Assembly: GCF_963921235.1 (NCBI RefSeq)
Contig: NC_086097.1
Location: 127,474,001-127,538,000, forward strand
Direction of reading: 5' to 3'
Origin: Mobula hypostoma
Lineage: Eukaryota
DNA length: 64,000 nt
Below are positions 1,225 through 54,600 of this stretch, piece after piece. The number at the start of each line of letters is the position of its first letter. Within the stretch, counting starts at the first letter, position 1. The position numbers were made by a program, and so were the translations under genes. The notes under the pieces were generated by a model, which did not search any database, was not told where the DNA came from, and saw nothing but the letters and a program-made list of their open reading frames with translations.

Positions 1225-1333
1225 AACTTTTGACTCAAACAACAGGAATTCTGCCGATGCTGGAAATTCAAGCAACATACATCAAAGTTGCTGGTGAACG
1301 CAGCAGGCCAAGCAGCATCTATAGGAAGAGGTG

Positions 1334-1371
1334 CAGTTGACGTTTCAGGCCGAGACCCTTCGTCAGGACTA
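1334..1371 (-). ncRNA. Minimal hammerhead ribozyme in the 3' pLTR, with a stem I mismatch
   Basis: Reverse complement of the same motif, reading GTC^AACTG instead of GTC^GACTG. Confidence 0.8.
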
Positions 1372-1667
1372 ACTGAAGGAAGAGTGAGTAAGGGATTTGA
1401 AAGTTGGAGGGGGAGGGGGAGATCCAAAATGATAGGAGAAGACAGGAGGGGGAGGGATAGAGCCGAGAGCTGGACAGGTGATAGGCAAAAGGGGATACGA
1501 GAGGATCATGGGACAGGAGGTCCGAGAAGAAAGACAAGGGGGGGGGGTTGACCCAGAGGATGGGCAAGAGGTATATTCAGAGGGACAGAGGGAGAAAAAG
1601 GAGAGTGAGAGAAAGAATGTGTGCATAAAAATGAGTAACAGATGGGGTACGAGGGGGAGGTGGGGCC

Positions 1668-4600
1668 TTAGCGGAAGTTAGAGAAGTCGATGTTCATGCC
1701 ATCAGGTTGGAGGCTACCCAGACGGAATATAAGGTGTTGTTCCTCCAACCTGAGTGTGGCTTCATCTTTACAGTAGAGGAGGCCGTGGATAGACATGTCA
1801 GAATGGGAATGGGATGTGGAATTAAAATGTGTGGCCACTGGGAGATCCTGCTTTCTCTGGCGGATAGAGCGTAGATGTTCAACAAAGCGGTCTCCCAGTC
1901 TGCGTTGGGTCTCACCAATATATAAAAGGCCACATCGGGAGCACCGGACGCAGTATGTCACCCCAGACGACTCACAGGTGAAGTGATGCCTCACCTGGAA
2001 GGACTGTTTGGGGCCCTGAATGGTGGTAAGGGAGGAAGTGTAAGGGCATGTGTAGCACTTGTTCCGCTTACACGGATAAGTGCCAGGAGGGAGATCAGTG
2101 GGGAGGGATGGGGGGGACGAATGGACAAGGGAGTTGTGTAGGGAGCGATCCCTGCGGAATGCAGAGGGGGGGGGAGGGAAAGATGTGCTTAGTGTGGGAT
2201 TCCCGTTGGAGGTGGCGGAAGTTACGGAGAATAATATGTTGGACCCGGAGGCTGGTGGGGTGGTAGGTGAGGACCAGGGGAACCCCATTCCTAGTGGGGT
2301 GGTGGGAGGATGGAGTGAGAGCAGATGTACGTGAAATGGGGGAGATGCGTTTAAGAGCAGAGTTGATAGTGGAGGAAGGGAAGCCCCTTTCTTTAAAAAA
2401 GGAAGACATATCCCTCGTCCTAGAATGAAAAGCCTCATCCTGAGAGCAGATGCGGCGGAGACGGAGGAATTGCGAGAAGGGGATGGCGTTTTTGCAAGAG
2501 ACAGGGTGAGAAGAGGAATAGTCCAGATAGCTGTGAGAGTCAGTAGGCTTATAGTAGACATCGGTGGATAAGCTATCTCCAGAGACAGAGACAGAAAGAT
2601 CTAGAAAGGTGTCGGAAATGGACCAGGTAAACTTGAGGGCAGGGTGAAAGTTGAAGGCAAAGTTAATAAAGTCAACGAGTTCTGCATGCGTGCAGGAAGC
2701 AGCGCCAATGCAGTCGTCGATGTAGCGAAGGAAAAGTGGCGGACAGATACCAGGATAGGCACGGAACATAGATTGTTGCACAAACCCAACAAAAAGGCAG
2801 GCATAGCTCGGACCCATACGGGTGCCCATAGCTACACCTTTAGTTTGGAGGAAATGGGAGGAGCCAAAGGAGAAATTAGTAAGAGTAAGGACTAATTCCG
2901 CTAGACGGAGCAGAGTGGTGGTAGAGGGGAACTGATTAGGTCTGGAATCCAAAAAGAAGCGTAGAGCTTTGAGACCTTCCTGATGGGGGATGGAAGTATA
3001 TAAGGACTGGACATCCATGGTGAAAATAAAGTGGTGGGGGCCAGGGAACTTAAAATTATCGAAAAGTTTAAGAGCGTGAGAAGTGTCACGAACATAGGTC
3101 GGAAGGGATTGAACAAGGGGTGATAAAACAGTGTCGAGGTATGCAGAAATGAGTTCGGTGGGGCAGGAGCAAGCTGAGACAATAGGTCGGCCAGGACAGG
3201 CAGGTTTGTGGATCTTGGGTAGGACGTAGAAACGGGAAGTGCGGGGTGTGGGAACTATAAGGTTGGTAGCAGTGGATATGGGAGATCCCCTGAGCGGATA
3301 AAGTCAGTGATGGTGTGGGAGACAATGGCCTGGTGCTCCTTAGTGGGGTCACGATCGAGGGGTAAATAAGAGGAGGTATCCGCGAGTTGTCGGTGTGCCT
3401 CGGCAAGGTAGAGGTCAGTACGCCAGACTACAACAGCACCCCCCTTATCAGCGGGTTTAATAATAAGGTTAGGATTAGTGCGGAGAGAGTGGAGAGCAGA
3501 GCGTTCCGAAGGAGTGAGGTTGGAATGGGGACAAGGTGCGGTGAAGTCGAGACGGTTGATGTCCCGTCGGCAGTTAGCAATAAAGAGATCCAGAGCAGGC
3601 AGAAGACCAGAGCGGGGTGTCCATGAAGAAGAGGAGGGTTGAAGACGGGAGAAGGGGTCCTCGGTGGGGGTGGAAGAGTCCTTGCCGAAGAAGTAGGCTC
3701 GGAGATGGAGACGGCGGAAGAAAAGTTCCGCATCGTGGCGAACACGGAACTCGCTGAGGTGTGGGCGAAGGGGGACAAACGTGAGGCCCTTACTGAGAAC
3801 AGAGCGTTCTGCCTCCGACAGTTGAAGGTCGGAGGGGATGGTAAAGACCCGGCACGGATGAGAGCTGGGATCGGAGGGGGGAGGCTGGGGGTGTCAATGG
3901 AGAGGGGAGGGTTGGGGTGAGAGGAAGATGGAGCCTCTGAGGGCCCAGGAGTTGACGGTGGGATCTGAGGAAGACGGGGCTGTGGAGTGGTGGTGGGGGA
4001 AGGGGAGACGGGAGTCACAACAGCAGCACTTGAAGACCCGGCCTGGAGCTCAAGGCTGGAGTCGCAGTTGGTGGTTGCGCAATCGCTGTGAAGGTGTCCA
4101 TGGTCGTTGCTGGAGTCCGGATTTTGAATATGCCCTGAGGTGTTGGAGCCGCCGAGATCAATGGCAGGTGCCGCAATCTGAAGTTCATGCCTGCTAGCGT
4201 CAGGGCCGGCAGGCTCTGGAGTCCGTAGATGTAGGATCTTGCGATCTTTGCCTAACATGACAAAGTCAAAAAAACGGCGATTGCAGGCGTGAATCCGACG
4301 GAGGATGAAATAACGGGTAGGACCATTACAGACGGCGAAGAAAGTGTCCCGAAGGTATGGAAGGGTCTGGGATAGGGACACCAAGTACCTCCTCATGGCG
4401 GAGAGCATCGCCTTCAGAGCTTGACGGGAGAAGCGGCGAGAGGCAGAGTCAATAAAATGTGAGTACCTGGGATCCTCAGAAGGTCCAAATTGAGAGGCTT
4501 GGAAACGAATCCTAAAGCCAACTGGAGTAAGTTGGCGACGGAGGCACGTTCCAAGAAAGGATATATGGCTGTGATAGCGAGTCTGAGTCAAAGTGTGGTC

Positions 4601-4701
4601 GAAAAGTTGAAGAGCCGAAGAAATTACAGATGGGAGCAGTGAGAGATGGTTTCACTGAACTCCTGTCGAAGAGAGGATCTAAACTTCTTCGGTGTAGGCA
4701 T
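1668..4701 (-). pseudogene. Penelope polyprotein (about 1000 codons): N-terminal region, DKG motif, reverse transcriptase, Cys linker, GIY-YIG endonuclease; about 4 frameshifts
   Basis: Motifs KPADKGG, DVQSLYTSIP, GVAMGTRMGP, RYIDD, CKRNKCYTC and LLYIGET...R...EH. ATG at 4701. Frameshifts near 4633, 3880, 3278 and 2170, mostly in short repeats or homopolymers. Confidence 0.9.
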
Positions 4702-5588
4702 CACCGGAAGAGGCTTCGCAGTAGTGAATTTAAACGCAAACAACAGGAATTCTGCAGATGCTGGAAATAAGCACATCTTTCCCTCCCCCTCTCTCTCTGC
4801 ATTCCGCAGGGATCGCTCCCTACACAACTCCCTTGTCCATTCGTCCCCCCCATCCCTCCCCACTGATCTCCCTCCTGGCACTTATCCGTGTAAGCGGAAC
4901 AAGTGCTACACATGCCCTTACACTTCCTCCCTTACCACCATTCAGGGCCCCAAACAGTCCTTCCAGGTGAGGCATCACTTCACCTGTGAGTCGACTGGGG
5001 TGACATACTGCGTCCGGTGCTCCCGATGTGGCCTTTTATATATTGGTGAGACCCGACGCAGACTGGGAGACCGCTTTGCTGAACATCTACGCTCTGTCTG
5101 CCAGAGAAAGCAGGATCTCCCAGTGGCCACACATTTTAATTCCACATCCCATTCCCATTCTGACATGTCTATCCACGGCCTCCTCTACTGTAAAGATGAA
5201 GCCAAACTCAGGTTGAAGGAACAACACCTTATATTCCGTCTGGGTAGCCTCCAACCTGATGGCATGAACATCGACTTCTCTAACTTCCGCTAAGGCCCCA
5301 CCTCCCCCTCGTACCCCATCTGTTATTCATTTTTATGCACACATTCTTTCTCTCACTCTCCTTTTTCTCCCTCTGTCCCTCTGAATATACCTCGTGCCCA
5401 TCCTCTGGGTCACCCCCCCACCCTGTCTTTCTTCCCGGACCTCCTGTCCCATGATCCTCTCGTATCCCCTTTTGCCTATCACCTGTCCAGCCCTTGGCTC
5501 TATCCCTCCCCTTCCTGTCTTCTCCTATCATTTTGCATCTCCCCCTCCCCCTCCAGCTTTCAAATCCCTTACTCACTCTTCCTTCAGT

Positions 5589-5626
5589 TAGTCCTGACGA
5601 AGGGTCTCGGCCTGAAACGTCGACTG
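5589..5626 (+). ncRNA. Minimal type I hammerhead ribozyme in the inverted pLTR
   Basis: TAGTC-CTGACGA-AGGGTCTCGGCCT-GAAA-CG-TC^GACTG: intact core, stems I and II, and an ACGT palindrome in place of stem III; predicted cleavage after C5621. Confidence 0.85.
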
Positions 5627-7029
5627 CACCTCTTCCTATAGATGCTGCTTGGCCTGCTGCGTTCACCAGCAACTTTGATGTATGTTGTAACTTTTGACTC
5701 CTGTCTTTGTAACATCATTCCCCATAACCACCCCTCTATTCACCCAGGTAGTGTGGTTTCCACCCTGCAACTCTAGCACAAACAAACCTTCCTACAGGTG
5801 CCCAGTGAGCCCCTCAGGTTCAGGTGCAATCCATCCCATCTACACAAGTCTCACTTTCTCTGGAAGATAGCCCAATGATCCAAAAATCTGAAGCTCTCCT
5901 GCATGCATCATCTCCTCAGCCAAGTGCTAAACTGTATTATCTTCCTATTTCTGGGCTTCTGAATTCAAATGGTATAATAAAAAAGTCTTGTATTACAACT
6001 GAGACCATTACAGTCTCTGGGCCTCAGTATCTTCTATCCATCCAGTCCACTTCCATGGTGTTTTGCTTCAAAAAAAAAAGCAAGCTGGTGGTATTGTCAA
6101 GGAGCTTCCCACCCTGGCCCTGCACTGTTCTCTCTTCTGTCTTCTGGGAGAAGATAAAGGAAACTGGATGAGCGAACTTAGGAACAGCTGCTTCCTCCTT
6201 ACTGCTGAGCTAATAATCTCTTTCTTGACCCTTTCCCAGTGGTGTTTCCACGTTCTTAGGCTCTTAATTCTATCTCTCTTACTGTTACTTTAGCATTTAC
6301 GTTTGCAGTGCTCAGACTGCACCGCAATTGTTAATCAATCTGTTGTTTTGTGCTCACTGTATTTACTGTGAAATGTACTACCACCACGTGCCGTACACTT
6401 GGTGAGCGTCATGCAAGCAAGGAATTTTATTGCACCCGGGGATATATGACAATTTAGATCCGATACAACAATTTCAGATAACTAGCTATGCAATCTTTTT
6501 CTTTTCACATATCTTACATTCGCAGTTAGTTTGCTTCTGGTAATTTCAAACATATGTTTGATTTTTATGTTCTTTTCTAGTTTCTTCATGTCACATTATC
6601 CACCAGAAACCTTTTGCAGCCTCTTTCAGCGCACTCCTTTCATCGTTCAATCTATCGTCTTCCCTCGTATCGAAACCTATCCTTTTATTCCCTACTTTGT
6701 TTCTGCCTTCCTCTGCATCTTACAAGTTTTACCTTCAACTTTCTCTGGTTCTGATGAACCGGAATTTTATCTGGGTGGATGTGAATCATGATGGCCATTT
6801 CTCTCTTTGCAGAGGCTGTCTGACGTGCTGTGTACTGTCATATACTTATGCTCAGCTTCAGACTGCCAACATGTAAGTAGCTGACACTGGAATGATGGGG
6901 GGGGGGTGAGGAGGGGGAGTGAGATGGTGACTGGGGAAGGGATGAGGGGTTAAATGGGGAGGAGGAAAGGATAGTGGAAGGGGGGTAGGGGAAGTGGGAG
7001 GGCATAGAGAGAGAAAACTTTGGACTTAC

Positions 7030-8100: not shown

Positions 8101-9379
8101 AGAACCGTGACCATTCACCTAACTATGGATGTGTGAGGAACCCAGAGTCACAGGAACCAGGGTCACTAATTTGTAGGCAGAAAGAATTATTATCCATACC
8201 TCGTGAAGTGGCCTAAATTTTACAGTAGTCAGCACAGGACACAGATTTAGGGGACAGACTTTAGGGGAAATCCGTGAGTTGCCATAAGGGCAACACAAGA
8301 GACTGCTAATCCTGAAATCTGAGTCTAAAAACATTGACAGCTCCTTTCCCACAGATGCCACCGCTCACCCCACTGAGACCCCTCCAGCCAATAGTTCAAT
8401 CATTGTTGGCTGTCTGTAGCAGTGACGAATGCACCTTATACACAAAAGCAGGGAAATTAAATTGCAAACAATAATGGTGTTGGTAAAACTAGAGTTTCAC
8501 GTCTAATTAAATTAGGAAGGATATGTGAGGGCTCAGAAGAAGGGATGAGAGACTTTGGCTATTGGATTATGCTGGAGAGCTGGAGTAAAGGCAGATGAGG
8601 AAGAGATTTGACTGAGACACACAAGACCAACGACACACAGGAAAGCCGCTCCCATCTTCAGAGGGATCAAGTTCTGTCCAAGGAAGGAGACATCGAACTT
8701 TTACAAACCTCCTCCATCAGTTACCATCTCTCTGCTCTTTCCCCCAGATCCCTACAGCCTTTACTTCTCCAGTTCTCATCAACAATCCTCTTGAAAGCGA
8801 CTACTGAATCTGCAGAGACACATCAGGCAGTGAACTCCACAATGTGCCCTGTCAAACACAGAGAGTACCGGGTTCTGACCCAGACACAAAGATCAGCAAA
8901 GGGGCATCGACAGCACTGTGGGAGTGCACGCTGGTGTTGTAATTAAGAGTAACATAAGCTGCACAGTCTGTGGTTGGGGACAAAGACAGCAAGTGGTTAA
9001 AAAAAAACCTCCTGTAAATTAAAGACAAAGGTTAGCTTCACTTGTCCCACGTACACAGTGACATAGGGTGAAATGCGAAACGAGCAACACAATCCAAGGA
9101 TGGGCTGGGTGCACACTTCTAGCATCAAGATCACAAGCCCACAATTTACCAGGCCGTACGTGTTTGGAATGTGGGAGGAAACCGGAGCACCCGGAGAAAC
9201 CCACGTGGTTACAGGGAGATCCTACAAACTCCTTACAGGCAGCGGTGGGAGTGGAACACCAATCTTGCAAACGGCGCGGCAAAGCGTTACGTCAGCTGCA
9301 ACGCTATCGTGCCACTCCTGCTCCTGACCTCACAATGGCCTTGCACCATATCGTCTGCCTGCACTGAACTTTCCCCGCA

Positions 9380-9520
9380 CAGTCCTGCTGAAGGGTCTCG
9401 GCCCAAAACATCAACTGGTTATTCATCTCCATAGAAGCTGCCTGACCTGCTGAATTCCTCCAGCATTGTGTGTGCGTGTGTTACTCTGGATTTCCAGAAT
9501 CTGCAGATTTTCTCCTGTTT
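9380..9520 (+). mobile_element. Penelope 3' fragment starting at a decayed hammerhead
   Basis: cagtcctgctgaagggtctcggcccaaaacatcaactg followed by the typical tail. Confidence 0.75.
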
Positions 9521-11599: not shown

Positions 11600-13495
11600 A
11601 ACACAGTGGACATCGACTTCATGAAGGTCTGTGTGGATGAGTGTGTGCCTCTGAGAACATACCAGACAGACCCAAACCCAAAGCTGTGGATGAACCAGAA
11701 GATTCATAGTCTACTGAGGGCTGGATCTGTGGCATTCAGAACTGGAGATCCAGAACTACGCAAACTATGGAAGGCTATTTTAAGAGTGAAAACTCATTCT
11801 AACTGAAGTTGGAGTGTGAATACGGTGCACGTCAGCTCTGGCAGGAGTTCCAGGCCATTACTTCTGACTAACGTCATGAACGGCTGTGATACTTCACTCC
11901 CAGGTGAGCTCAATGCCTTTATGCACACTTTGAAAGGGAGAATAAACTACACCTGTGTGAATCCTTGTCGCATCCTGTGATCTCGGTGTTGGAGGCAAAC
12001 GTCAGAACAACTTTCAAGAGTGAACCTTTACAAGACATCGGGCCCTGATGCTGTACCTGGTAGGGCACTGAAAACCTGTGCCAACCAACTGGCGGGAGTG
12101 TTCAAGGACATTTTCAATCTCCTGCTTCTGCAGTCGGAGGTTCCCACCTGCTTCAAAAGGCTGACAATTGTACCAGTGCCCATGAAGGGCAAGGTGAGCT
12201 GCCTCATTGACTATCACCCTGTGGCTCTCACATCTACCGTGATGAAGTGCTTTCAGAGGTTGGTCATGGGTAGAATCAACTCCTCCCTAAACAAGGACCC
12301 GCACCCGCTGCAATTTGCCTATCATACAGTGGATGCAATCTCACTGGCTCTCTGCTCAGCCTTGGACCACATGGACAATAGTAATACCTATGAGAGGTTG
12401 CTGTTTATTGATTACAGCTCAGCGTTCAACAGCATCACATCCTCAGTACTAGTCAACAAACTCCAAAACCTGGGCCTCTGTATCTGCAACCTTGACTTCC
12501 TCACCAGGAGGTAATAGTCAGTGTGGATCAGAAATAACATTTCCTCCTTGCTGACAATTAACTCTGTGTACCTCAAGGACGTGTGCTCAGCCCACTACTC
12601 TACGCTGTTTACACCCACGTCTATGTGTCTAGGCACAACTCAAACGGCATCTATATATTTGCTGATGACACAACCATTGTTGGCAGGATTTCAGATGGTG
12701 GTGAGAAGGCGTACAGGACTGAGATAGATCAGCTGGTTGAGTGGTGTTGCAACAGCAACCTTGCACCCAATGTCGGTAAGACCAAAGGATTGATTGTGGA
12801 CTTCAGGAAGGGGAAGTCGAGGGAACACATACCAGTCCTCATCGAGGGATCAAAAGTGGAAAGGGTGAGCAGTTTTCAGTTCCTGGGTGTCAACATTTCT
12901 GAAGATCTATCCTGGGCCCAACATTTGATGCAATTACAAAGGCAGCAAGGCAGTGACTATATTTCATCAGTAGTTTGAGGAGACTTAGTATATCACTGAA
13001 GACTCCCACAAATTTCTACAGATGTACCATGGAGAACGTTCTAATTGGTTGCACCATCATCTGGTATGGAGGGGCTACAGAAAGTTGCAAACTCAGCCAG
13101 CTCCATCATAGCCTCCACAGCACTGAAGACATCTTCAAAAGGCGATGTCTCAGAAAGGCACCATCCATCGTTAAGGACCCCCATCTTCTCATTGCTACCA
13201 TCAAGGTGGAGGTACAGGAGCCTGAAGGCACAGACTCCACATTTCAGAAACAGCTTCTTCTCCTCTGCTTCCAGATTTCTAGATGGACAATGAACCCATG
13301 TACACTACCTCACTATTTAAAAAATTTTTTGCTCTCTTTTTGCACTACTTATTTAAATATATATATATATTTCTTATTGTAATTTATAGTTTTTTGTTCT
13401 ACCATATAATATGTAATTACCGTTTATTTCTGCTGCAAAACAGTAAAATTTGCAACATATGCCAGTGATATTAAACATGATTCCTATTCTGATAC
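11600..13495 (+). mobile_element. Rex1/Babar-type LINE, decayed RT
   Basis: LKTCANQLAGVFKDIFN, FIDYSSAFN and IFADDTT motifs; tail ending in gattct-like repeats. Confidence 0.85.
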
Positions 13496-24521: not shown

Positions 24522-25239
24522 TGCTTACTGCAAACCGTTATAATGCACTTGCAGCATACACTTTACAATGAAATTAGGGCCTTTAGCCCAGCCCACGCTA
24601 TTAACTGTCCATTTAAACTAATACTAAATGCATCCCTGTTTTGACAACCCAATTGACATCAATTATACCCAGATTCTACCACTCGCTTGCACATTCGGGT
24701 AAATTTACAGCATTCAGTAAACTGACAGACCTGCATGTCTTTGGGATTTGGGAGGAAACCAGAGCACCTTAAAGAAATCCATGTACTCAAAAGAAGAACC
24801 TGCAAACTTGACATGGATAACACTCGAATTCAGGATTGAAACCAGATCCCTGGTGCTATGAAGCAACAGATCTACTAGGATAAAGAACAATACAGCACAG
24901 GAACAGGTCCTTTGTGCATTAAACAACACACAGAATGCTGGAGTAACCTTTAGCGCTGAGACCCTTGATCAGGACTGGAAAGGAAAGGGCAAAAGCCAGA
25001 ATAAGATGGAGGGGGAGTGGAAAGGACGAGTACAAGCTAGCAGGAGATAGGTAAAAACCAGGTGAGGGGGAAGGTGTGTGGGTGGGACAGAGTTTCTAAC
25101 AGGTGGTAGTTGGAGAAGGTAAAGGGCCCTGTGCCTTGTGCCAAACTAATTACATCTAATTAAAGTAATCCTTTCAGACTATGCAAAGTCTATATCTCTC
25201 CATTCTCTGACTATCCATGTGCCTATCCAAGAGCCTCTT

Positions 25240-25482
25240 AAACACTTCCATCACATTAACCTCCACCACCACCGGCAGCACAAACACTTCCATCACGTTA
25301 ACCTCCACCACCACCGGCAGCACAAACACTTCCATCACATTAACCTCCACCACCACCGGCAGCACAAACACTTCCATCACGTTAACCTCCACCACCACAA
25401 ACACTTCCATCACGTTAACCTCCACCACCACCGGCAGCACAAACACTTCCATCACATTAACCTCCACCACAACCGGCAGCAC
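25240..25482 (+). repeat. 42-bp minisatellite, 6 copies (one shortened to 33 bp), inside a CR1 3' end
   Basis: Unit aaacacttccatcacRttaacctccaccaccaccggcagcac at 25240, 25282, 25324, 25366, 25399 and 25441. Confidence 0.95.
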
Positions 25483-28111
25483 ATTACAGGCACCCACCAC
25501 TCTCCGGTTTTAAAAAAATAGTGCCCTGCACATCTTTAAATTTCACCCCACCCTGTAAAGAGAAAAAGGAAATAAAGGTTGTCCTTTAGAGATGCATTTG
25601 TAATTCTTGAACAAAGTATCAAATTATGAGACTTTTCAGGATTTACCTATTTGAGTTCCTTACATTTAAAAAAAATATACCATACAATGGCATTAACCAC
25701 CCTGCCATGCATCCCAAAAATTCATTTTGAATTGGCAACAGCAAAAAAACAAGTTCAGCAATTCTTAGATTAAAATGTTGTAGCCACTACTATTCTCATA
25801 TCAACAATGCTTGCAATTGTTGATTCGGCAAAGGGTATTTTGATTGAGTACTGCCAACAGCCTTGAAGAAGCACGACTAGTTGAAATCTTTGATCATCTT
25901 CCTTCTATCTAAGTAAGCGACACAGTCCTTGTGGGCAATAAAACATGAATGCAAAGTTACCCCAGTCATAATCACAGCTAAAGTTTGGCAAACACATTAT
26001 CGAAATTTGAAAAGGATTTATTTTTGATTGCTTTGAATTGAATGTTTAGTGGCTCTAAAGAGGTTTTGAAGTCAGTCACGACATTAAGACACCTAACCTA
26101 TTACATGTAAACATTTAACAGCATTATTGGAAAGAGTTCCACAGACATTTCAGTACTGTTAATACAAGCTTCTTGAATGTTAAATCAATGGTGACTATAA
26201 ACATAACCTAAAATGTTTTCAAGTTCAAGTTTAAATTATCATTTAACCATACACAAATATCCATTAATACAGCCAAACAAACAGTGTTACTGATGCAAAA
26301 CACAGTACAAACAGTCATACACATCACAAGGCACACACAGCACATATCAGACAGCACTAAAATACAATCACACAAAAAAATAGTCCAGGTCCCCAAGTCC
26401 ATGAATGTTGCAGCAGTCTGCAATTAAACACAATGCATCAACTTCTGGCCAGCGAACACTGGGGAACAGCACCAACTCTGCTGCCTTTCCCTTGGGCAGC
26501 CAGAAGCAAGCAACACTGCAGCTTGAAGCCTAGACCTTGCCATGATCGAGGCCACACAGCTCCCCAGCCGCCCGCCAACAAATCAATGAATCGGACTTGC
26601 AGAAGCCGCTGCATCCGAGATCGTTGCCAACTTACTGGAAGATGTATATTCTCAACCCGTATATGCAAATGTATATGCCTCACTTTATACACGGATTACT
26701 TAACTATTGAGCTGAATCTATTGGGGAATTTTTAAATACAGAGCCTAATTATTTAAATTTGTTTTTGCTGCTAAGAAAACAAAATATTAAGTAGAAACCG
26801 CAGAAGCTAGAAATCTGAAATAACAACATAAAATGCTGGAAATATTCAGCAAGTCACCAGCATTTGGACAGGATGAAACACTTAACATTCCAGGACTAGG
26901 AAACAAAGACTCAAACTTAAGTTGCAGAAAAAAGAAAGGTAGAGAGAACAAATAGAATGCCTGATCAGACAGGATGGTGAAAACTTGCTCACAGGAGCTG
27001 TTCTGTCTGGGGAGATGTAGACAGGAGATGAGTGGATTCACAATAGAAAATAAAGATAGAATTAGAGATACTTTGATGTCAATGGCTAGAAATCTAAAAT
27101 AAAATGGAACTTTGGAAATACCTCTGAGGTATACAGAGAAGAACTAAGTTAATGTCACAATCTTTCATTTGGTCAGCTCAGGTACGAACTGGATAACATT
27201 TATCTGAAATTGTTGAATTCAGTGTAGATTGTAACATGTCCAATGAAATGAGATTGGGCCCTATTAGAACAGTATAACAAGTCAAAAAAAGGCCAGGGAA
27301 TGGATGGAACATTTAGATGATGAGTAACTGGAAGTCAGGAGTTATAGAGTGAATGGAGATGTCTGGTAATGCAGTCACCCAGTTTACAACAGGTTTCACA
27401 AATGTGGAGACCATGTCGTGCGTAGAGAATGCAGTACACAAAAGTGAATGTACAAGTCAATTGTTGCATCAAAATATTATGTATGGAACCTCACGTTCTT
27501 TATAGATATAATAAGTGCCACAACTTCAATCTCCACCAATCATTCTACATTCTTCCAACCTAAATAATAACGTTCCAGAAATATCCTAAAAGTAAATCAA
27601 TGTCTGCATGTTTCTGTCCAAATATGGTTAAAACAAGGATGAAGGTAATCAACTTAACTTGAGAATGAGTGGATAGAGTTGATGCAACATTTGTGAATGT
27701 GGACTGGCTTATGAATTACTATACTTACTGTGATTTTCTGTAGTAATTCCCTTCCAAATTTAGGATAGTTGGTCCTGGGTCAAAACTTTAAGGGTTTGCA
27801 TAGAAATTTTAAAATTTACAGTTTGAGAGCACTGTTCACTTACATGCAAAGAGAAAGTAGACTATTCAAAAGATAAAACAGAAGCCATTAAATGCACCTT
27901 GTTACATATCCACCGGATTCTTCGATACATTTTACTGCATTGAAACACAAAGGTGTATGACATTTTATCATCTTTTCTGATTAAAAAAAACTTTCAATTG
28001 ACCTTTATGCTGTTGGAATTAACCATCTTTCATAGCAATTAAACAGGATCCATATATCCTATTCAGAGAAAGTGCAAGAGATAACTTTCCAAGGTTCTAC
28101 AAATCACTTAC

Positions 28112-28879: not shown

Positions 28880-30040
28880 CCACTGGACATCCTGAACAAT
28901 ACAAACACCTACGTTAGGATGCTGTTCGTCGATTATTGCTCAGCATTTAACACCATCATTCCCACGATCCTGATTGATAAAGTTACAGAACCTGTGCCCC
29001 TGTACCTCCCTCTGCAATTGGATCCTCGACTTCCTAAATGGAAGACCACAATCTATGTGGATTGGTGATAACATCTCCTCCTCGCTGACGATCAACACTG
29101 GTGCACCTCAGGGATGTGTGCTGAGCCCACTGTTCTACTCTCTATACACACATGACTGTGTGGCTAGGCATAGCTCAAATATCAACTATAAGTTTGCTGA
29201 AGATACAACTATTGGTTGAATATCAGATGGAGATGAGAGGGCGTACAGAAGCAAGATACACCACCTAGTGGAGTACTGTTGCAACAACAACCTTGCACTC
29301 AATGTCAGTAAGACGAAGGAACACATACATACCAATCCTCACAGAGGGATCAGAAGTGGAGAGAGTGAGCAGTTTCAAGTTCCTGGATGTTAAGATCTTG
29401 GAGGACCTAACCTGGTCCCAACATATCTATGTAGCTATAAAGAAGGCAAAACAGCAACTATACTTCATTATGAGTTTGAAGAGATTTGGAATGTTGACAA
29501 AAACACTCAAAAAGTTCTATAGATGTCTTGACTGGCTGCATCACTGTCTGATATGGGGGAAGGGGCTACTGCACAGGACTGAAAGAAGCTGCAGAGGGTC
29601 ATAAATTTAGTTGGCCCATTCTTGGGTACTAGTCTACAAAGTACCCAGGACATCTTCAAGGAACAGTGTCTCAGAAAGGCAGCATCCATTATTAAGGACC
29701 ACCAACACCCTTCCCCCCCCCCCCCACCTATGGCATGCCCTTTTCTCACTGTTACTGTCAGGAAGGAGGTACAGAAGCCTGAAGGCACACAATCAGTGAT
29801 TCAGGAACAGCTTCTTCCCCTCTGCCATCCGATTCCTAAATACCGTGAACACTACCTCACTTTTTAAAATATATATTATTTCTATTTTTGCATAATCTTT
29901 AATCTATTCAATAGACATATACTGTAATTTAATAATTTATTTATTTTTCTTTCTATATTATGTATTGCATTGAACTGCTGCTGCTAAGTTAACAAATCTC
30001 ATGACGCTTGCCGGTGACAATAGACCTGATTCTGATTCGG
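28880..30040 (+). mobile_element. Rex1/Babar LINE fragment
   Basis: [20 protein letters not shown]...KFAEDTT; tail cctgattctgatt. Confidence 0.85.
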
Positions 30041-34883: not shown

Positions 34884-35075
34884 GTTGCAAACACGAGGAA
34901 ATCTGCAGATGCTGGAAATACAAGCAACACACATCAAAGTTGCAGGTGAACGCAGCAGTCCAGGCAGCATCTCTAGGAAGAGGTACAGTCGACGTTTCGG
35001 GCCGAAACGTCGACTGTACCTCTTCCTAGAGATGCTGCCTGGACTGCTGCGTTCACCAGCAACTTTTATGTGTGT
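34884..35075 (-). mobile_element. Miniature fold-back Penelope insertion (tail plus palindrome) in EEF1E1 intron 1
   Basis: TSD TCCATAATCT at 34874-34883 and 35076-35085; arms of about 75 bp around a 1-nt centre at 35001; homologous to 1237-1350. Confidence 0.9.
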
Positions 35076-35934
35076 TCCATAATCTATCGATTCACTTTCA
35101 AGGACTCTACAACTCACGTTCTTGTTTAAAATTATTTATTTATTTATTATTGGCACGATTTGTCTTCATTTGCACATGGGAATTTGTTAGTCTTTGTTAT
35201 GTACAGCTTTTCATAAAGTTTATCATGTTTATTTTCTTGTAAATGTCTGCGAGAAAATGAATCTCAGGTAATATATGGTGACACATACATATTTTGATAA
35301 TAAATTTACTGAACTTTGAATAATTGTTTATCTCTTTTCTTGATCAGCTTGTATATCTAAACTTCAGGGAGGTTTGCAGGAAGAAGTCAACCAGTGTGAT
35401 AAAGTGTAAAAGCTTTTCCCACTTTTATTCCCCTCCAGCAAAAACAAAAGCTGTAATTCCAAGTGGTATCTTTTAAAAATGTAGTTTAAATGATAATTTC
35501 AAATTGGGGAAGATCCAAGTGTGTACCTTAGTGTGTAGAGGTGGGGCAGGGCTTGGTGGTGGGAGTTGGGACAAATGTGGGGAGCAAAAAAGAACAGTAA
35601 TGTGTCAATAGGTGCTTGATAGTATGTGTGGACTCAGTGGGCCAAAGGGTCTATTTCTGTGCTCTGATCAATCTCTATACTTGCTCTGTACATTCTGCTA
35701 GTATACAATTATCTTTAATGAGAGTTGGTCACTGGGTCCCAGATCAGAAAATTGCAGTTCACTAACCTGCAGAGCAGGTCAAAGCAGTTAGCACCGTACA
35801 CCCACGGCTGCTCTGAAAATACTGGTGGCTGAACTCCATAGATGGTCTTGCAGAGTTAACGAGAATGCAGAGGAAGGAATTGGCAACACAAAAAGGGTGT
35901 TGTCACAATTTCACGGGAAGGGGGTCAGGCAAGT

Positions 35935-39589: not shown

Positions 39590-40511
39590 ATTCTCTGCTA
39601 CTTCCTCCATTTTCAACAGGATCCTACAACTATACACATCTTTACTCCAACCCCCCCCCCCCACCAACGCTCTCCGCTTTCCGCAGGGATTGCTCCCTCC
39701 ATGATTTTTTTGTCCATTCGTTCCTCCCCACTAATCTCCTTTCTGGCAAGTGACTGAAATGCTACACCAGCCCATTCATGTCCTCCCTAAAGTCCTTCCA
39801 GGTGAGGCAGCAACTTCACCTGCAACCTGTTGAGGTTGTGTACTGTATCCAGTGCTCCCGATGCAAGCTCCTCTACAATGGTGAGACCCAATTTAAATTG
39901 GGGGATGGCTTTGTCGAGCACCTTAGCTTCATCCGCCAAAAGCAGAATTTCCCAGTTACCAAACATTTAATTTCTATCCCCTCCTGACATGTCGGTTCGT
40001 GGCCTCAGCTTCTGCCACGGTGAGACCACTCTCAGGATGGAGGAGCAACACTTCATGTTCCCTCTGGGTAGCCTCCAACCTGATGGCATGAACATTGATT
40101 TCTCCTTCTGGTAACTTTTTTTCTCTTCTTTTCTTTTCTCCTCCCCCTCCACTCTTCATCCATTCTCTACTCTTTCCTCTTACCCACTTCTCCTCACCTG
40201 CCTATCATGTCCACCTGGTGCTCCCCCTTTCTCCCATGGTCCACTCTCCTCTCCTATCAGATTCCTTCTTCACCAGCCCTTTACCTCTCCCACCAACCTG
40301 GCTTCACCTTTCACCTTCTAGCTTGTCCTCTTTCCACTCCCCCCAACCTTTTTATTCTGGCACCTTCCCCCTTTCTTTTCAGTCCTGAGGAAGGGTCTTG
40401 GGCTGGGATGGCAACTGTTTATTCATATAGACGCTGCCTGACCTGTAGAGTTCCTCTAACATTTTGTGTGTGTCACTTTGGATTTCCAGCATCTGCAGAA
40501 TCTCTTGTGTT
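39590..40511 (+). mobile_element. Older 5'-truncated Penelope copy with decayed GIY-YIG, decayed hammerhead (about 40381-40417) and tail
   Basis: VVYCIQCSRCKLLYNGET; ctgggtagcctccaacctgatggcatgaacat shared with the young element; tail tttccagcatctgcagaatctcttgtgttt. Confidence 0.85.
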
Positions 40512-40779
40512 TAACTTTTCTCAATCTCTTATGAAGCTGGGATATAGAGTCTAATAGCAATGAAGCATGCTCTTCCCTCTTTGACAGTTTATTCCTCTCC
40601 ATAGATGCTGCCTGACCTGCTGAGTTCCTCCAGCAATTTGTGTGTCTTGCTTCACCCCACCAAGTCTGCACTGACCCTCAAGTGCCAACTTGCATTAATC
40701 CTACACCAATCACCATTTATTTTGTTCTCCCCCCATTCTCATCAGCTCTCTCTCTCATCTCTCACTGACGCACACATTA

Positions 40780-41555: not shown

Positions 41556-43298
41556 GGGAAATTTGCAGTGAACAAGTGGCCTTCAAACCTGCTCATCACT
41601 GGGCAGTGGAACCACTATGGAGCAACTGGAGAAGGTACGTGTAGTCACCAAGAAAGTGTTCTAATTCCACACTGACAGCACTCAGAAGTCAGGATTGAAT
41701 CTGGGTCACTTGAGCTGTGTGAGGGAGCAGCTCAGCATATCTTCACAGGACAATCGCTCACTCTGGAATTAACCTTGCAAATCTCGGATGCTGAACTGTA
41801 GAATATATGAAATAGGAACAAGAGTTGTTCACCTCTCCTCAAGCTTTCTTGGCCTTTCAATCGGATCTTGGTTCCACCTGCATTTTCCTCTATTACCTCC
41901 ATAATCTTTGATTCCACTCAGGTCCAAAAATATGTTTGTTTTCTTTTGCACATTGCTTGCTTATCAGTCTTTGTTTGTCTGCAGATTTTTATTGATTCTA
42001 TTGTATTTCTTTGTTCTACGGTGAAGGCCCGCAAGAAAATTAATCTCAGGGTAGCATTTGGTGACATATATGTACTTTGATAATGCATTTATTTTGAACT
42101 TTGAACCTAGCAGTGTGGGACCCAAGGCTTCTGTACTTCCTGCCCATTTACATTAAACCTATCATCTAATCTGTGCTTTAAAACTGTTAGCCAATGCCAG
42201 GATGGGAATGGTGAATTTGTTTTCCTCGTTAGTGAAGTATTAATGCTTTTTTGTTGTTATACAAAGCAATGTAGGAATGGTTTTACACAAAGTGGTGCAA
42301 ATACATAATTTCTCCATTGAGTATCGTGTAGTTCCAAGATTATGCTGGCGTATCAACTTTAACAGAGTGAAATAACACAGAGTTATCGTACCAAGACTCC
42401 TTCTCTGTATTACAAAGAACCTTGAAGCGAACACAGATGGATGGCCAATTTCTAAATTCATGCTGTATCAAAATACAGGTAATAACTTCAGGAACACTAG
42501 CTCAGATTGGTGGGAGAACTGCTCCAGCTACATTGTTCTGCTTTGACTCTGAATTTATAAATAGAGAATTCTCCTCTAGCCCATGCTTGTCTTCCTGATG
42601 TGATTCATTGCCTCATCCTCTGTAACTTCATGTGACTCCATAACTTATTTGGTTTACTGTGCTTCTCAAGTTCTGATGTTCTGTGCATCCCAGATGGTGA
42701 CTATGCTAGAAATATCTGGCTCTGCTATTTCTGCTCAGAAACTCTCTCTCTCCATTAACTCGCTTCTGAAGACAACTCCCATTTACACGTATCTTCCTAA
42801 TATCTCTGTAAGCGGCTTTGTGGAAGTGGCTGGAGTTTCTACGGTTGTAGGGTTAATTTAGATCAAGAATTCTGTACTAATTGCATGTTAGTTGTAGAAT
42901 ATTTAAGCTTGCCCTCACTGGAGCACTCATTTTCCTTGTAGGAGTGTCACCATTTATGTAAAGTGATCTCAAATGCTTGCAAGAGTTTCTCCTGCCAGTC
43001 ACCATTGCCAGTAAAGTCTGGGTCATCTTCCCCCCACCACCTGACTAGCATTTTCTTGCCTCAAACAATGTCCAAGTCTCTCTCACTGATTTCAAAGTTC
43101 AAAGTAGGTTTATTATCAAAGTACATACATATCACTGTATACTTCCCTGAGAATCATTTTTCTTGCAGGCATTCACAGTAAATGTGAAGAAACACAATAG
43201 AATCAATGAAAACTACACAAAAAAAAGATGGGCAAACAATGGGAAAAATACAATAATTGTGCAAATACAAAAAGAAAAACAAATTATTAATAATAATA

Positions 43299-44181
43299 AG
43301 AGGGGTGATTGATAAGTTCGTGGCCTAAGGTAGAAGGAGTCAATTTTAGAAAAACTAGCACATTCATTTTTCAACATAGTCCCCTCCTACATGTACACAC
43401 TTAGTCCAGCGGTCGTGGAGCATACGGATCCCTTCTTTGTAGAAGTGGTCCACTGCAGGGGTGATTGATAAGTTCGTGGCCTAAGGTAGAGGAAGATGAG
43501 TTGAAACTCTAGGAAGAGGTGCAGTCGACGTTTCAGGCCGAGACCCTCCTGACGAAGGGTCTGGGCCTGAAACGTCGACTGTACCTCTTCCTAGAGATGC
43601 TGCCTGGCCTGCTGCGTTCACCAGCAACTTTTATGTGTGTTGCTTGAATTTCCAGCATCTGCAGAATTCCTGTTGTTTGAGTTGAAACTCATCCACTTAG
43701 TCCAGCGGGTGATTGATAAGTTTGTGGCCTAAAGTAGAAGGCAATGAGGAGAAACTTCAAACTTTCTGCATTTTCACTCAAAGTGTTGAACTGTACGTGC
43801 ATGTAATGAGAGCGTCTTGGACGTCTAAGTGGTCCACAGCAGGGGTGATTGATAAGTTTGTGGCCTAAGGTAGAAGGAGATGAGTTATACAGCTCTCGTT
43901 ACATGCACGTGCAATTCAACTCTTTGCATGAAAATGCAGAAAGTTTGAAGTTTCTCCTCATTGCCTTCTACTTTAGGCCACAAACTTATCAATCACCCCT
44001 GCTGTGGACCACTTCTGGAGGTCCAAGACGCCGACTTCTACAAAGAAGGGATCTGTATGCTCCACGACCGCTGGACTAAGTGTGTAAATGTAGGAGGGGA
44101 CTACGTTGAAAAATAAATGTGCTAGGTTTTCTAAAATTGACTCCTTCTACCTTAGACCATGAACTTTTCAATCACCCCTCG
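43299..44181. mobile_element. Mariner-type MITE with TA TSD and multiple internal TIR copies, inserted in a Rex1 LINE (about 43095-45090, minus)
   Basis: TA|(c/a)GAGGGGTGATTGATAAGTT...AACTTTTCAATCACCCCTCG|TA; long terminal inverted arms. Confidence 0.85.
43510..43677 (+). mobile_element. Miniature Penelope insertion: short inverted arm, hammerhead core and tail, nested in a MITE
   Basis: TSD TGAGTTGAAACTC at 43497-43509 and 43678-43690; core CTGACGA...GAAACGTC at 43549-43576; tail ending CAGAATTCCTGTTGTT. Confidence 0.9.
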
Positions 44182-45165
44182 TAGATAAATAAATAATATT
44201 AAGAACATGAGTTGTAGCGAAAGTGAGCACATAGTGAGGCTGTGGAATTCGGCTCAGTGATGTAGTGAGTGAAGTTATGGTTGGGGGGTAACAACTATGC
44301 ATAAACCTGGTGTGTGGGACCTAAAGTTTCCTGTACCTCCTTCCAGATGGTAGCAGTGCGAAGGGAACATGACCTGGATGATTGCTGCTGCTTTGTTGTA
44401 AGTGTGCTCATTGGTGGGGAGGGCCCTACCTGTACTGGACTGGGCTGTATTCATCACCTTTTGTAGGCTTTTCCATTGAAGGGCATCAGTGTTTCCATAC
44501 CAAGCGGTGAAGCAACTAGTTAGTATACTCTCTATCATGCATCTATAGAAGTTCATCAAAGCTTTACTTCACAAGCTTCTAAGAAAGTCAAGGTGGCTCC
44601 TTGCCTTCTTTGTAATGGCACATGTGTTGGCCCAGGACAGATCCTTTGAAATGGTAACACAGAGGAATTTAAAGTTATTGACCTGCTCACCTCTGATTCC
44701 CTGATGAGGACTGGCTCATTGACCTAAAGTTTCCTCCTCCTGAAGTCAATAATCAGCTCCTCGGTGTTGCTGACGTTGAGTGGGAGGTTGTTGTTGCGGT
44801 CCCATTCAGCCAGATTTTCAATCTCCCTCCTAAGTGCTGTTTAGTCACCAACTCTGATTTGGCCAATGACAGTGGTGTTGTTAGCAAACTTAAATATAGT
44901 ACTGAAGCTGTAATTAGACTCACAGTCATAAGTATAAAGCAGGTAGAGGAGGGGGATGAATATACAGCCTTGTGGTGCACTTGACTGACAGAGATTTTGG
45001 AGGAGATGTTGATGCCAATCTGAACTGACTACAAGTGAGGAAATTTGAGGATTCAGTTGCACAAAGAGGTATTGAGGCCCCAGGTCCGATGGTGTCAAAC
45101 AGAGCAATAGTTCCTTCCTTGCAGTGGGAAGAAGGACTCTGGTCACTTCCTGCCTCTATGTTCAA

Positions 45166-51656: not shown

Positions 51657-54600
51657 CAAGTCTTTCCCAACCGTTTTTAGGCCAACACTCCACTAGAGCA
51701 CCTTTTTATTTGCCAACACCCCCTAAAGCACCCTTGTAATTGTCAATGCCCTCTAAAGCACTTTCGTACTTGCCAACACCCCTCTTAGGCACAATATACC
51801 TTCCAGTGCCCCCATAGTGTAAAAGCATGTCTACCATATGTTAACATGAGAAAATTTATTCTGCTTTAAATTTTTATTTGTCTTTAAACCTGGCTACACA
51901 GTACCTGTGCATTGTACAGCAGCTTCGATATCATTTTTATCCTTAAGCTTGATGATTTTTAGCAAGAGTTGAAATATCAGGTTCAAGTTGTGACAGCAAA
52001 AGCCTTACATAAGTCCCCATGTGTAACAATGTCCAAGCGGTTTCTGTTTTTTGTGAGTATGTGGTTCCCTGCACTGTAGCCTCTTTTAACAAGTTAGGAG
52101 GATGGAAATGCAATGAAGAGCAGTTTGGCTCTTCTCCAAAGACCAGGAAACTTCCTCCTGCAGTACCACAAAAGCTGATGTTTTTGAAAAGCATTTTTGC
52201 TTCTTCATCATTCTGAATTTTGATAATTTCTTCTTGCAAGGTCTCTTCCTGTTCTTTCACCTTGCAAAGAAATGGGTTAATTACCCAGTCCGGAATTTCC
52301 AGATTGTTCAATTCCTTGAATAGATTCTGAAAATCCTTCTTCAGTGAGTGCAAGTGTAAGCAGTACTCTTGCAAACCACCATCTGTGAAGGCAAGTGCTA
52401 TACTTTCCATGCAGGGAAACTTCTCCCAATGTTTTGCTTATATATTTCCAATTTTTCAATAAAAGCGGACATTACACTTTTTGCCTGGATTAAACTGAAA
52501 TTCTCACCCTGCAGTTTCATATTTAGAGCGTTAATTTGGTCATACCTATCAGCTAAGTATGCCCCATCTCCACCTAGAAGTTCAGTCTTGTTTCCCAAGC
52601 TTTTGTCGACTTTGAGCAAAAATTCAACCACAGTGTTAAAAAGATCAAAGAACCATTTTAAGTAGCAGGGTTTTGCCAGCCAACTCACTTCAGTGTGAAG
52701 AAACAAGTGTTCAAACTCTTCATCATTATCTTGGCATAACTGACAAAATATTCTGCTAAGGATGAGCCTTAATTTTGTTGATAACAGATATTACAAGAGT
52801 CATGCTTGAAAAACACCATTGGCTGAGGTTTTTGGCTGCGAGATGTTTACAATGAATCAGAGAATGGTTTGCAAGTTGACTTGGAATTTCTTCTTTCATA
52901 AGTGCTCCTAAACCAGCATGGTGACCTGTCATATATGGTGCTCTATTTGTTACATAAGAAAACATGTCCTTAATCAGAATACTTTTATCCTCAATGACCC
53001 TATACAATTACACCAACACCAGGTAGATCGGCTCTGCGCGGAGTCAATGTGAGGAAAGCAGCTGGCCCAGATGGAGTCACCGGAAGGATTCTTAAGGACT
53101 GCGCAGATCAAGTAGCGGGAGTATTTACTACCATCTTCAACCGCTCGCTACTACAGTCTGTAGTTCCCACCTGCCTTCAGTCAGCCACAATAATACCCAT
53201 ACCAAAGAAAGGTACAGTGAACTGCCTTACTGACTATTGCCCAGTTGCTCTAACTCCTATCATATGAAATGTTTTGAGAGACTCATACTGTCTTATATTA
53301 AGTCTGCCATACCTGCTGACCTTGATAAATACCAGTTTGCGTATCGTGCAAACAGATCGACAGAGGATGCAGTCATCACAGCTCTCCACACAGCTCTTAC
53401 AAACCTGGATCTGGATAACACCTATGTAGAAATGCTGTTTGTGGACTACAGCTCAGCTTTTAATACAGCTCATCCCCTACAAACTGGAGCAACCTGAGCC
53501 TTGGCAGCTCACTGTGCTCAGGGATACTGGATTTTCTGAGTAACAGACCCCAAAGTGTCAGGATGGGAGAACAGACATCATCTACTCTCATCCTGAACAC
53601 TGGTACACCACAGGGGTGTGTTCTCAGCCCCATCCTCTATTCTCTTTTCACCCATGACTGCTCTACCATTCACTCCACCAACACCATTGTCAAATTTGCT
53701 GACGATACCACCCTAATAGGTATCGTATCAGACTGTGATGAGACAGCCTATAGGGAGGAGGTACAGCATTTGACAGAATGGTGTTGTCATAATAACCTGG
53801 ACTTGAACATCACAAAAACTAATGAGCTAATAGTAGACTTCAGGAAATCAAAGCTTGTTGAGCACTCTGCTCCGCACATATACGGGAAAGAGGTGGAGAG
53901 GGTGAAGAGTTTCAAGTTCCTCGGCATCCACATCTCAGCTGACCTCACCTGGACTGCCCATGTCTCTTACCAGGTGGGGAAGGCCCAACAGAGGCTCTAC
54001 TTCCTAAGGAAGCTAAAGCACGCTCTCCTCCCTCATAACCTGCTGATCAACTTCTATGGGACAACTATAGAGAGCCTCCTGATGTATTGCTGTGCAGTGT
54101 GGTTTGCCAGCTGCACAGAACAGAACAGGAAGGACTTGCAGCGGGTGGTGAGGGTAGCAGAGCGGGTTATTGGCACAACATTACCCTCCCTCAGAGACAT
54201 TTATACTGGCAGACTTCAAAAGAAGGCTACTTGTATTTCAAAGGATCCCACTCATCCTGGACATCACCTGTTTTCCCCTCTACCTTCTGGGAAGAGATAC
54301 AGAGCATTAAGGACAAAAACAAAGAGACTCCTTAACAGCTTCTACCCATAAGCAGTGAAATGTATAACACCCCCTTCCCTTCTCCTGCCCCCCTCCTAAG
54401 ACGGCGGCAGCTAAATGCATCACACTTCCAGGAATGGCAGGTGTGCTATCCCCACATCCATATATTATTAATTTTGGACTGCACTCCTGAAGTTTTAGAG
54501 TTTATTTTATGTATATATTCTTTGTCATGCTGCAAAACGTTGAGCTGCTAAACTGTGTTTTATTGCTCCACAACAATGACAATAAAGATATTCTTCTTCT

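Follow-up and report, generated by a model that had tools for sequence, protein, structure and literature searches.

EN+ Penelope-like elements (PLEs) have as their hallmark an RT with a GIY-YIG nuclease C-terminal to it (PMC11167929 and the accessible part of PMC8557442), and that same part of PMC8557442 gives as further traits heavy 5' truncation, partial tandems that form pseudo-LTRs (pLTRs), an adjacent inverted and 5'-truncated copy, and an optional 30-40-bp 'tail' at one end. Concerning the minimal hammerheads (min-HHRs) of PLEs, low in vitro activity has been reported for motifs of this type, the G-C pair at 10.1-11.1 is described as highly conserved, and in the Penelope of Drosophila virilis the end of an intron coincides with helix I's 5' end (PMC4209133). 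The published answer to a helix III that does not close is the double hammerhead (PMC4209133; PMC6765202 in its accessible part, citing Forster 1988 and Lunse 2017), and the requirement for a dimer, together with a unit-length or circular RNA, was hypothesised by Cervera & De la Pena in 2014 (PMC4209133). In PAc, the Poseidon element of Anolis carolinensis (Frangieh et al. 2024), the hammerhead cleaves only with the element's protein and its mutants are unaffected for insertion in vitro; no RNA-seq reads ended at the cleavage site, the element shows a 30-40-bp tail, and its long and short ends are explained by two internal RT start sites and the use of both DNA strands (PMC11167929).

The motif class, the dimer model and the idea of circles are already published (Cervera & De la Pena 2014; Frangieh 2024), and none of them is new here. 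The motif described below lies at 5589-5626 of the window, that is, the whole stretch of 64,000 nucleotides that was analysed. We read it, with a probability of about 0.6, as the minimal type-I hammerhead of an abundant, recently active PLE, which would cleave itself at C5621|G5622 only if a second copy, probably held by the protein of the element, supplies helix III.

The motif and the insertion that carries it

Read directly, window 5589-5626 on the plus strand is TAGTC CTGACGA A GGGTCTCGGCCT GAAA CG TC GACTG, or UAGUC CUGACGA A GGGUCUCGGCCU GAAA CG UC GACUG in RNA form. The hammerhead core consensus (C3 U4 G5 A6 N7 G8 A9 / G12 A13 A14 / A15.1-U16.1 / H17) is present in full at 5594-5621, and the parts are assigned as follows.

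5589-5626, plus strand: minimal type-I hammerhead motif, from direct reading, pattern statistics and 39,061 exact genomic copies
5589-5593 with 5622-5626, plus strand: helix I, UAGUC:GACUG, 5 bp, outer pair U.G
5594-5600, plus strand: core CUGACGA, C3 to A9, with C as N7
5601, plus strand: unpaired A between A9 and 10.1
5602-5605 (GGGU) with 5610-5613 (GCCU), plus strand: helix II, 4 bp, loop CUCG
5614-5617, plus strand: GAAA, G12 to A15.1
5617-5620, plus strand: palindrome ACGU (A15.1-C-G-U16.1) in place of helix III, U5620 being U16.1
5621, plus strand: C17, with the predicted cut at C5621|G5622

Helix I is closed by the flanking strands and, with its 5 bp, falls in the min-HHR range of 4-5 bp. 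The pair at 10.1-11.1 of this copy is G.U, not G-C. A helix III is absent, and the self-complementary ACGU makes a dimeric helix III possible on paper. The cut is predicted at C5621|G5622 because hammerheads cleave 3' of H17 after U16.1. A first-pass annotation of this DNA had named the same position, and most of its other structural statements hold as well: the complete core CUGACGA/GAAA/UC is read directly and recurs identically in the 39,061 genomic copies, stem I (UAGUC:GACUG) forms five pairs of which one is U.G, and stem III is indeed reduced to the palindrome ACGU. For stem II it had left the choice between AGG:CCU and GGGU:GCCU with an extra A; ViennaRNA picks the GGGU:GCCU register.

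The pattern CTGANGAN{5,20}GAAACGTC has 3 matches in the window against 0 in 100 shuffles, and a search for the 33-mer with up to 3 mismatches returns 3 window matches, carrying 0, 1 and 1 mismatches. Rfam gave no hammerhead match on the whole window at the gathering score, nor on 5540-5680 at E<=10, as would be anticipated for a motif that lacks the hairpin of helix III. Its sole match, a sub-threshold one to PrrB/RsmZ on the opposite strand, was taken as chance.

The motif stands near one end of a composite Penelope-like insertion with the following layout.

1225-1235: left target-site duplication AACTTTTGACT, 11 bp, exact match to the right copy
1236-4786, minus strand: near unit-length Penelope-like copy whose 3' end is of the 'long' type, at about +102 from the cut
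4787-5688, plus strand: 5'-truncated Penelope-like copy forming the inverted arm, with the end of the GIY-YIG region, the 3' untranslated part, the hammerhead and a 'short' 3' end
5689-5699: right target-site duplication AACTTTTGACT, exact 11-bp match

The plus-strand arm ends 66 nt after its cut site, and the inverted repeats (1273-2174 and about 4787-5687) are 97-98% identical. Since a single 11-bp duplication surrounds both inverted arms, both come from one integration event. The first-pass annotation had placed the copies in Penelope pseudo-LTRs, a view that is not borne out here: the two complete motifs of the window sit on inverted arms of one insertion and not in direct pLTRs, so that no transcript of the window carries two sense copies.

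Concerning the encoded protein, the minus-strand copy matches RVT_1 in 2095-3303 (E 1.2e-5) and GIY-YIG in 1668-2600 (E 7.7e-4), both below the Pfam cut-off, and the plus strand matches GIY-YIG in 4643-5293 (E 6.9e-4). The RVT_1 and GIY-YIG of the minus-strand copy lie in different frames (at least three), so its reading frame is interrupted; at 3276 this copy carries two surplus letters relative to nearly all contigs of other runs. A continuous frame is found elsewhere in the genome, at locus L042, where 3544-5886 encodes 780 aa with RVT_1 at 243-404 (E 2.6e-4) and GIY-YIG at 653-727 (E 7.5e-4), both matches being below the Pfam curated cut-offs. The nearest Atlas clusters are eukaryotic, with HTH_animal, DUF8422, RVT_1 and GIY-YIG, and a search of the PDB by sequence found no relative of the element's ORF. 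With both domains present in the window and joined in one frame at L042, the attribution to a Penelope element stands, and with it the earlier assignment of the motif to the minimal type I hammerheads of PLEs, for which the core, the ACGU and the RT plus GIY-YIG context are all found. Of the EN+ PLE traits, 5' truncation, inverted partners and two 3' ends are seen here, and a direct tandem at only 1 of 20 loci.

The window holds further copies of the motif and decayed relatives, some of them from a sister family described below.

1334-1371, minus strand: hammerhead of the minus-strand copy, core intact, 1.1 being A instead of G
43510-43679: palindromic mini-insertion, whose plus-strand right arm (about 43547-43679) has the core at 43549-43581 and a long tail
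43510-43547, minus strand: left arm of this mini-insertion, covering only -21 to +16
43549-43581, plus strand: core-bearing truncated copy without the helix I 5' strand
43499-43509 and 43680-43690: 11-bp duplication AGTTGAAACTC flanking 43510-43679
About 34887-35076: palindromic pair of the same family as the 5589 copy, flanked by CCATAATCT
9380-9417, plus strand: decayed sister-family hammerhead, CAGUC CUGcUGA ... aAAA CaUC aACUG, followed by the sister-family tail
40381-40418, plus strand: decayed sister-family hammerhead with an internal deletion
59064-59090, plus strand: fragment whose likeness is limited to helix I, the core and the first part of helix II

The recurrences listed earlier at 1334-1371 and 43549 are both real, and both are imperfect. 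In the first, the A at 1.1 breaks the innermost pair of helix I; it is a CpG transition found in this copy only, and at place 1338 almost every contig from the other runs reads the equivalent of G. The second lacks the helix I 5' strand because it is 5'-truncated at about -29, where it adjoins the inverted arm, the junction of the two arms lying in the 5' half of the hammerhead. Decayed copies had been placed at about 9380, 40381 and 59063 and are found there, all three belonging to the sister family. The palindromic pair at 34887-35076, absent from that motif list, has arms that both start inside helix II (centre 35001) and hold only the 3' part of the motif, one with a long and the other with a short tail.

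Some further repeats of the window may be recorded here. The 43.5-kb mini-insertion lies inside a cluster of direct and inverted repeats (43283-44197) whose unit contains GGGTGATTGATAAGTTCGTGGCCTAAGGTAGA. At 40584-40644 there is a sister-family tail whose similarity seems to start at about the cut-site position (GACAGTTTATTCC...), with unrelated sequence before it; it is one possible case of a copy starting at G1.1. A C/A-rich tandem array with a 42-nt period (33- and 9-nt variants) occupies 25226-25525 in 7 overlapping copies, and a dispersed repeat of about 71-77% identity, unrelated to the Penelope-like family, occurs at 12852-13284, 29352-29841 and 53889-53965.

Folding, conservation and the 10.1-11.1 pair

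In the nearest-neighbour model the double hammerhead reaches -11.5 kcal/mol and an extended inactive dimer duplex -30.3 kcal/mol. The minimum-energy fold of the monomer, at -11.0 to -11.7 kcal/mol (z -0.59), is no stabler than those of shuffles and pairs GACG of the core (5596-5599) with CGUC at the cut site (5618-5621), and the ACGU:ACGU helix has a predicted probability of 0. According to these energy models, inactive folds are favoured over the dimeric active fold, a disfavour that agrees with the low in vitro activity of such motifs and with the protein-dependent cleavage of PAc. It may be noted that GUCGAC at 5619-5624 is itself a 6-nt palindrome which, together with GACG:CGUC, favours inactive monomer and dimer folds in the energy model.

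Written out in full, the active form would be a domain-swapped double hammerhead in which both helix I and ACGU pair between copies: helix I of the enzyme part of one copy would be made with the substrate strand of the other, and ACGU:ACGU would provide one shared helix III of 4 bp. In such a structure ACGU pairing alone is insufficient, and the earlier proposal that two copies pair through ACGU has to be amended by an inter-copy helix I. The tandem transcript on which the copies were thought to meet does have a genomic counterpart at L042; such an arrangement occurs at 1 of 20 loci and in 1 of 97 copies, and nowhere in the window, which gives no support to the proposed circular RNA either. 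Given how rare tandems are, a different RNA molecule would in most cases have to supply the second copy. We therefore picture a second copy that may sit on one of the few tandem transcripts but would more often come on an RNA of its own, with a dimeric protein bringing the two RNAs together; cleavage would then shorten RNAs that read through or span several units, at a point just upstream of the ORF. If PAc of Anolis is a guide, it would likely be slow, protein-assisted and dispensable for the reverse-transcription step itself.

Copies within the genome say little on selection. Among 48 long copies, sites are mostly 92-100% identical and the changes are mostly CpG transitions, which makes these dead copies uninformative on this point. 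A descriptor scan of 574 kb of genomic loci gave 61 instances and 19 intact variants, all of one lineage, and within-genome covariation is uninformative because the family is young. Pair-preserving changes are one-sided only (U.G/C-G in helix I; G.U/G-C and U.G/U-A in helix II), several of them being CpG transitions, and no double compensatory changes occur among the compared copies.

More can be gained from related families. The sister family, of the 9380 type, is older than the 5589 family, and its CpGs have decayed to CA: its decayed copies read CCCAAAACATCAACTG and better-kept ones, such as that at L078, CCCGAAACGTCGACTG. Its motif, with a helix I of CAGUC:GACUG, differs from that of the 5589 family only at the outer pair of helix I (C-G versus U.G), at N7 (U versus C) and at 11.1 (C versus U), while the upstream and tail sequences diverge far more than the motif does.

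A side observation concerns the sequence in front of helix I. A polypyrimidine run ending in CAG lies directly 5' of the helix I 5' strand in the 5589 family (5575-5593) and overlaps that strand in the sister family (9362-9384; L052-L080). It resembles a 3' splice site, and no spliced copies were seen among the sampled genomic copies.

Contigs of two further organisms, D and E, were compared at a likeness of at least 80%, counting the positions at which, in both runs, most of the depth disagrees with the window. Among the rows listed, these majority differences are distributed as follows.

38 nt upstream: 6 (5555, 5556, 5567, 5574, 5575, 5582)
Motif, 5589-5626: 1 (5613)
38 nt downstream: 3 (5627, 5630, 5649)

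By these counts, among the rows listed, organisms D and E keep the motif better than the sequence on either side of it. A lack of preferential conservation had been named beforehand as evidence against a ribozyme; the 1 difference in the motif, against 6 upstream and 3 downstream among the rows listed, points the other way. The change at 5613, T>C in both organisms, restores the canonical G10.1-C11.1.

In hammerheads, G-C is strongly preferred at 10.1-11.1. In organisms D and E the pair is G-C by majority of depth, while in the present genome position 11.1 reads T in 32, C in 15 and G in 1 of the 48 long copies, and U in all 27 intact central motifs of the best 30 loci. On this distribution, U11.1 is a derived CpG transition of the dominant lineage of the present genome. 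Quantitative data on G.U at 10.1-11.1 were not found in our literature search. Since the most successful lineage has G.U where G-C is highly conserved, these sequences leave room for the view that full ribozyme activity may not be needed in the G.U lineage.

Family size and the ends of insertions

The exact 33-mer 5594-5626 occurs 19,501 + 19,560 = 39,061 times in the genome (3.48 Gb), and a 33-place pattern for the tail just downstream of the motif has 68,389 exact matches genome-wide; the reversed control gives 0 in both cases. At least 40 genomic copies are 97-100% identical to 5540-5690, with ends at query position 150-154. Alignment of 20 loci of 10 kb to the element of the window gives a repeat unit of 3.5 kb, most copies being 5'-truncated. 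An abutting inverted, 5'-truncated partner is present at 11 of the 20 loci. L042 is the only one with a direct tandem, whose two sense hammerheads are spaced by 3.5 kb. At the junction of this tandem, hammerhead, tail and ORF follow each other uninterrupted, and an 800-aa frame has its first in-frame ATG at +60 relative to the cut. No same-strand motif pairs about 3.5 kb apart were found among the first 100 motif places listed of the 39,061.

In order to describe insertion ends, a positional sample was taken, consisting of the first 100 places of the tail pattern (contig 1, 0-4.1 Mb; L081-L170), which yield 97 unique copies. Being chosen by position, the sample is unbiased as to the hammerhead, yet all of it comes from one chromosome end. 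The distance from motif to insertion end falls mainly into two classes, 59-72 nt (short) or 96-116 nt (long).

3' end at +59 to +72 ('short'): 42 of 97 copies
3' end at +96 to +116 ('long'): 39 of 97 copies
3' end between the short and long clusters: 7 of 97 copies
3' end earlier than the short cluster: 6 of 97 copies
Copy continuing past the tail into the ORF: 1 of 97 copies
3' end unplaced: 2 of 97 copies

The tail of an inverted partner lies no more than 250 nt upstream in 24 of the 97 copies, and the mini-insertions at 34887-35076 and 43510-43679 are of the same kind. Consistent with the predominance of 3' parts is the depth of contigs in runs X1, X5 and X19, which in bin 1200-1320 (3' end) is about 900-3,000 times that in bin 4225-4345 near the 5' end.

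Head-to-head inverted pairs have their own regularity. In 7 of the 7 pairs sampled (L102, L120, L138, L141, L143, L145 and L155) one end is long (+96 to +116) and the other short (+56 to +72). For the 11 pairs of the 20-locus set (L031-L050), the arm that had been searched out is short in 11 of 11, and its partner long in 10 of 11. A single target duplication of about 11 bp surrounds each pair, and both arms thus arise in one integration.

Another observation is that several contigs of runs X1, X5 and X19 join place 1370, just upstream of helix I when read along the element, to different internal places (1693, 1975 and 3218). These joins suggest deletion derivatives, or related families with a common hammerhead-plus-tail module.

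The 5' boundaries, given relative to the cut site for the 92 anchored copies of the positional sample, are distributed as follows.

Beyond -121: 43 of 92
-120 to -48: 8 of 92
-47 to -22: 35 of 92
-21 to -1: 6 of 92
0 to +7: 0 of 92

The zone from -47 to -22 is about 12 times as densely populated as the 73 nt next to it (binomial p 1.4e-13), and it is the same for either 3' end, with medians of -31 (n=23) and -34 (n=22; Mann-Whitney p 0.25). Many members of this cluster are 'hammerhead + tail' mini-insertions of 90-160 nt with their own target duplications; among short copies with no detected inverted partner, an exact target duplication of at least 8 bp adjoins the insertion ends in 10 of 24, and a shifted control gives 0 of 24. 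Among the 97 copies no peak of 5' ends was found at the cut site (G1.1). About 5-7 of the 97 lie at roughly -3 to +7, five of them unanchored, and two are possibly at 0 within the ambiguity of the junction; L126, one of the five unanchored copies, begins exactly at the cut site.

The cluster may consist either of RNA 5' ends, for example from a transcription start in the pLTR, or of positions where the RT, or a hairpin of the nascent cDNA, brings synthesis to a stop. A start within the pLTR is reported for Penelope and Chlamys in the accessible part of PMC8557442. Because the clustered copies hold an intact cut site, uncleaved RNA was their template, in agreement with PAc (PMC11167929). We would tentatively propose, with some doubt, that the RNA used for copying has its 5' end marked by the hammerhead and that cleaved RNA does not serve as template. 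If the cluster represents a transcription start or an RT stop at the ribozyme, solitary 3' ends would be the sources of about 10^4 'hammerhead + tail' mini-insertions, and the ribozyme would decapitate its template and not define it. In the part of the PLE literature that was searched, no description was found of such a 5'-end cluster or of a ribozyme acting as decapitator.

Alternative readings and comparison with known systems

The most serious competitor of a conditionally active ribozyme is a hammerhead that is retained but catalytically weak or dispensable, what is selected being the hairpin-rich hammerhead plus tail as a site where the RT/EN protein binds and is positioned, with cleavage unneeded for copying. 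We regard this as possible but doubtful. The lineage with U11.1 (G.U) makes up about two thirds of the sampled copies and all of the youngest ones, the modelled energies favour an inactive rod-like fold, and copies retain an intact cut site with their 5' ends clustered upstream and not at the cut; in PAc, moreover, in vitro insertion proceeds normally with mutated hammerheads, and the region to which the protein binds is located immediately downstream of the ribozyme (PMC11167929). These points have to be set against the pattern of constraint: every core nucleotide is preserved from one family to the other, and also in organisms D and E, against flanks that do change, the sole majority change among the rows listed hits a helix pair and keeps it paired, and a plain hairpin would not require CUGANGA/GAAA/UH. 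The G.U at 10.1-11.1 may simply be tolerated, and the PAc hammerhead does cleave when the protein is present (PMC11167929).

Two other readings fare much worse. That the family is a non-LTR retrozyme, in which small non-autonomous units in tandem set free circular RNAs by means of their hammerheads, is brought to mind by the about 40% of sampled copies that are short 'hammerhead + tail' units with no ORF, and retrozymes are reported as derived from PLE pLTRs in the accessible part of bioRxiv 10.64898/2026.07.22.740005. We nevertheless consider it very improbable, since the short copies, either dispersed singles or inverted pairs, bring target duplications of their own, continuation past the tail is seen in only 1 of 97 copies, and the window copy is part of an ORF-bearing element; no head-to-tail arrays of short hammerhead units were found among the examined copies, which are dispersed or inverted. 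As for a chance likeness to a hammerhead core in repetitive DNA, the missing Rfam hammerhead match and a monomer fold no stabler than shuffles could be cited for it. It is contradicted by the three pattern matches against none in shuffles, by the presence of every listed PLE min-HHR feature at the described location, and by a core conserved across families and organisms, and we give it next to no credence. The reading we prefer is still that of a PLE hammerhead dependent on a second copy.

Compared with the min-HHRs of PLEs (PMC4209133), the 5589 family shares the type-I topology, a helix I of 4-5 bp, the unpaired nucleotide between A9 and 10.1, the lack of a helix III hairpin, the palindromic 15.2-16.2 and the proposed dimeric active form. 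In both cases the motif sits in the terminal repeat region of elements with RT and GIY-YIG and occurs in thousands of copies, mostly solitary, some of them on opposite strands 100-700 bp apart. The differences are in helix II, which has 7-8 bp in the Schistosoma min-HHR families and 4 bp plus a 4-nt loop here, and in the pair G10.1-C11.1, which is G10.1.U11.1 in the dominant lineage of the 5589 family (PMC4209133). Neither the 5589 motif sequence nor shark terms were found in the searchable supplement files of PMC4209133.

PAc (PMC11167929) is alike in having the hammerhead just upstream of, or at, the start of the ORF, and insertions that end at two positions 30-40 bp apart downstream of it; the use of both DNA strands in PAc fits the inverted pairs of the 5589 family. 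The start codon of PAc is contained in the hammerhead, with the cut 26 nt downstream of that codon, whereas in the 5589 family the first in-frame ATG is 60 nt downstream of the cut. PAc is known biochemically, the 5589 family from its sequence. With newt satellite 2 and avocado sunblotch viroid, which form double hammerheads (PMC4209133; accessible part of PMC6765202), the family shares an unstable helix III stabilised by two copies through a palindrome. Those systems have a helix III of 1-3 bp plus loop in short tandem units, whereas the 5589 family has no helix III and its copies are mostly dispersed. The non-LTR retrozymes of animals, as far as the accessible parts of PMC7229834 and bioRxiv 10.64898/2026.07.22.740005 describe them, likewise have type-I hammerheads related to PLE pLTRs; they form head-to-tail arrays that give small circular RNAs, in contrast to the autonomous-type element with dispersed truncated copies seen here.

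The 5589 family, which numbers about 39,000 identical motifs and about 68,000 tails, is thus one more very large family in the known class of PLE min-HHRs, and the current picture of PLE hammerheads is unchanged by it. What it offers is a convenient test system, with a natural comparison of G.U and G-C at 10.1-11.1 in lineages of differing success and, next to the ribozyme, a sharp cluster of insertion 5' ends that keeps its position, both of which bear on whether PLE hammerheads cleave in vivo and why.
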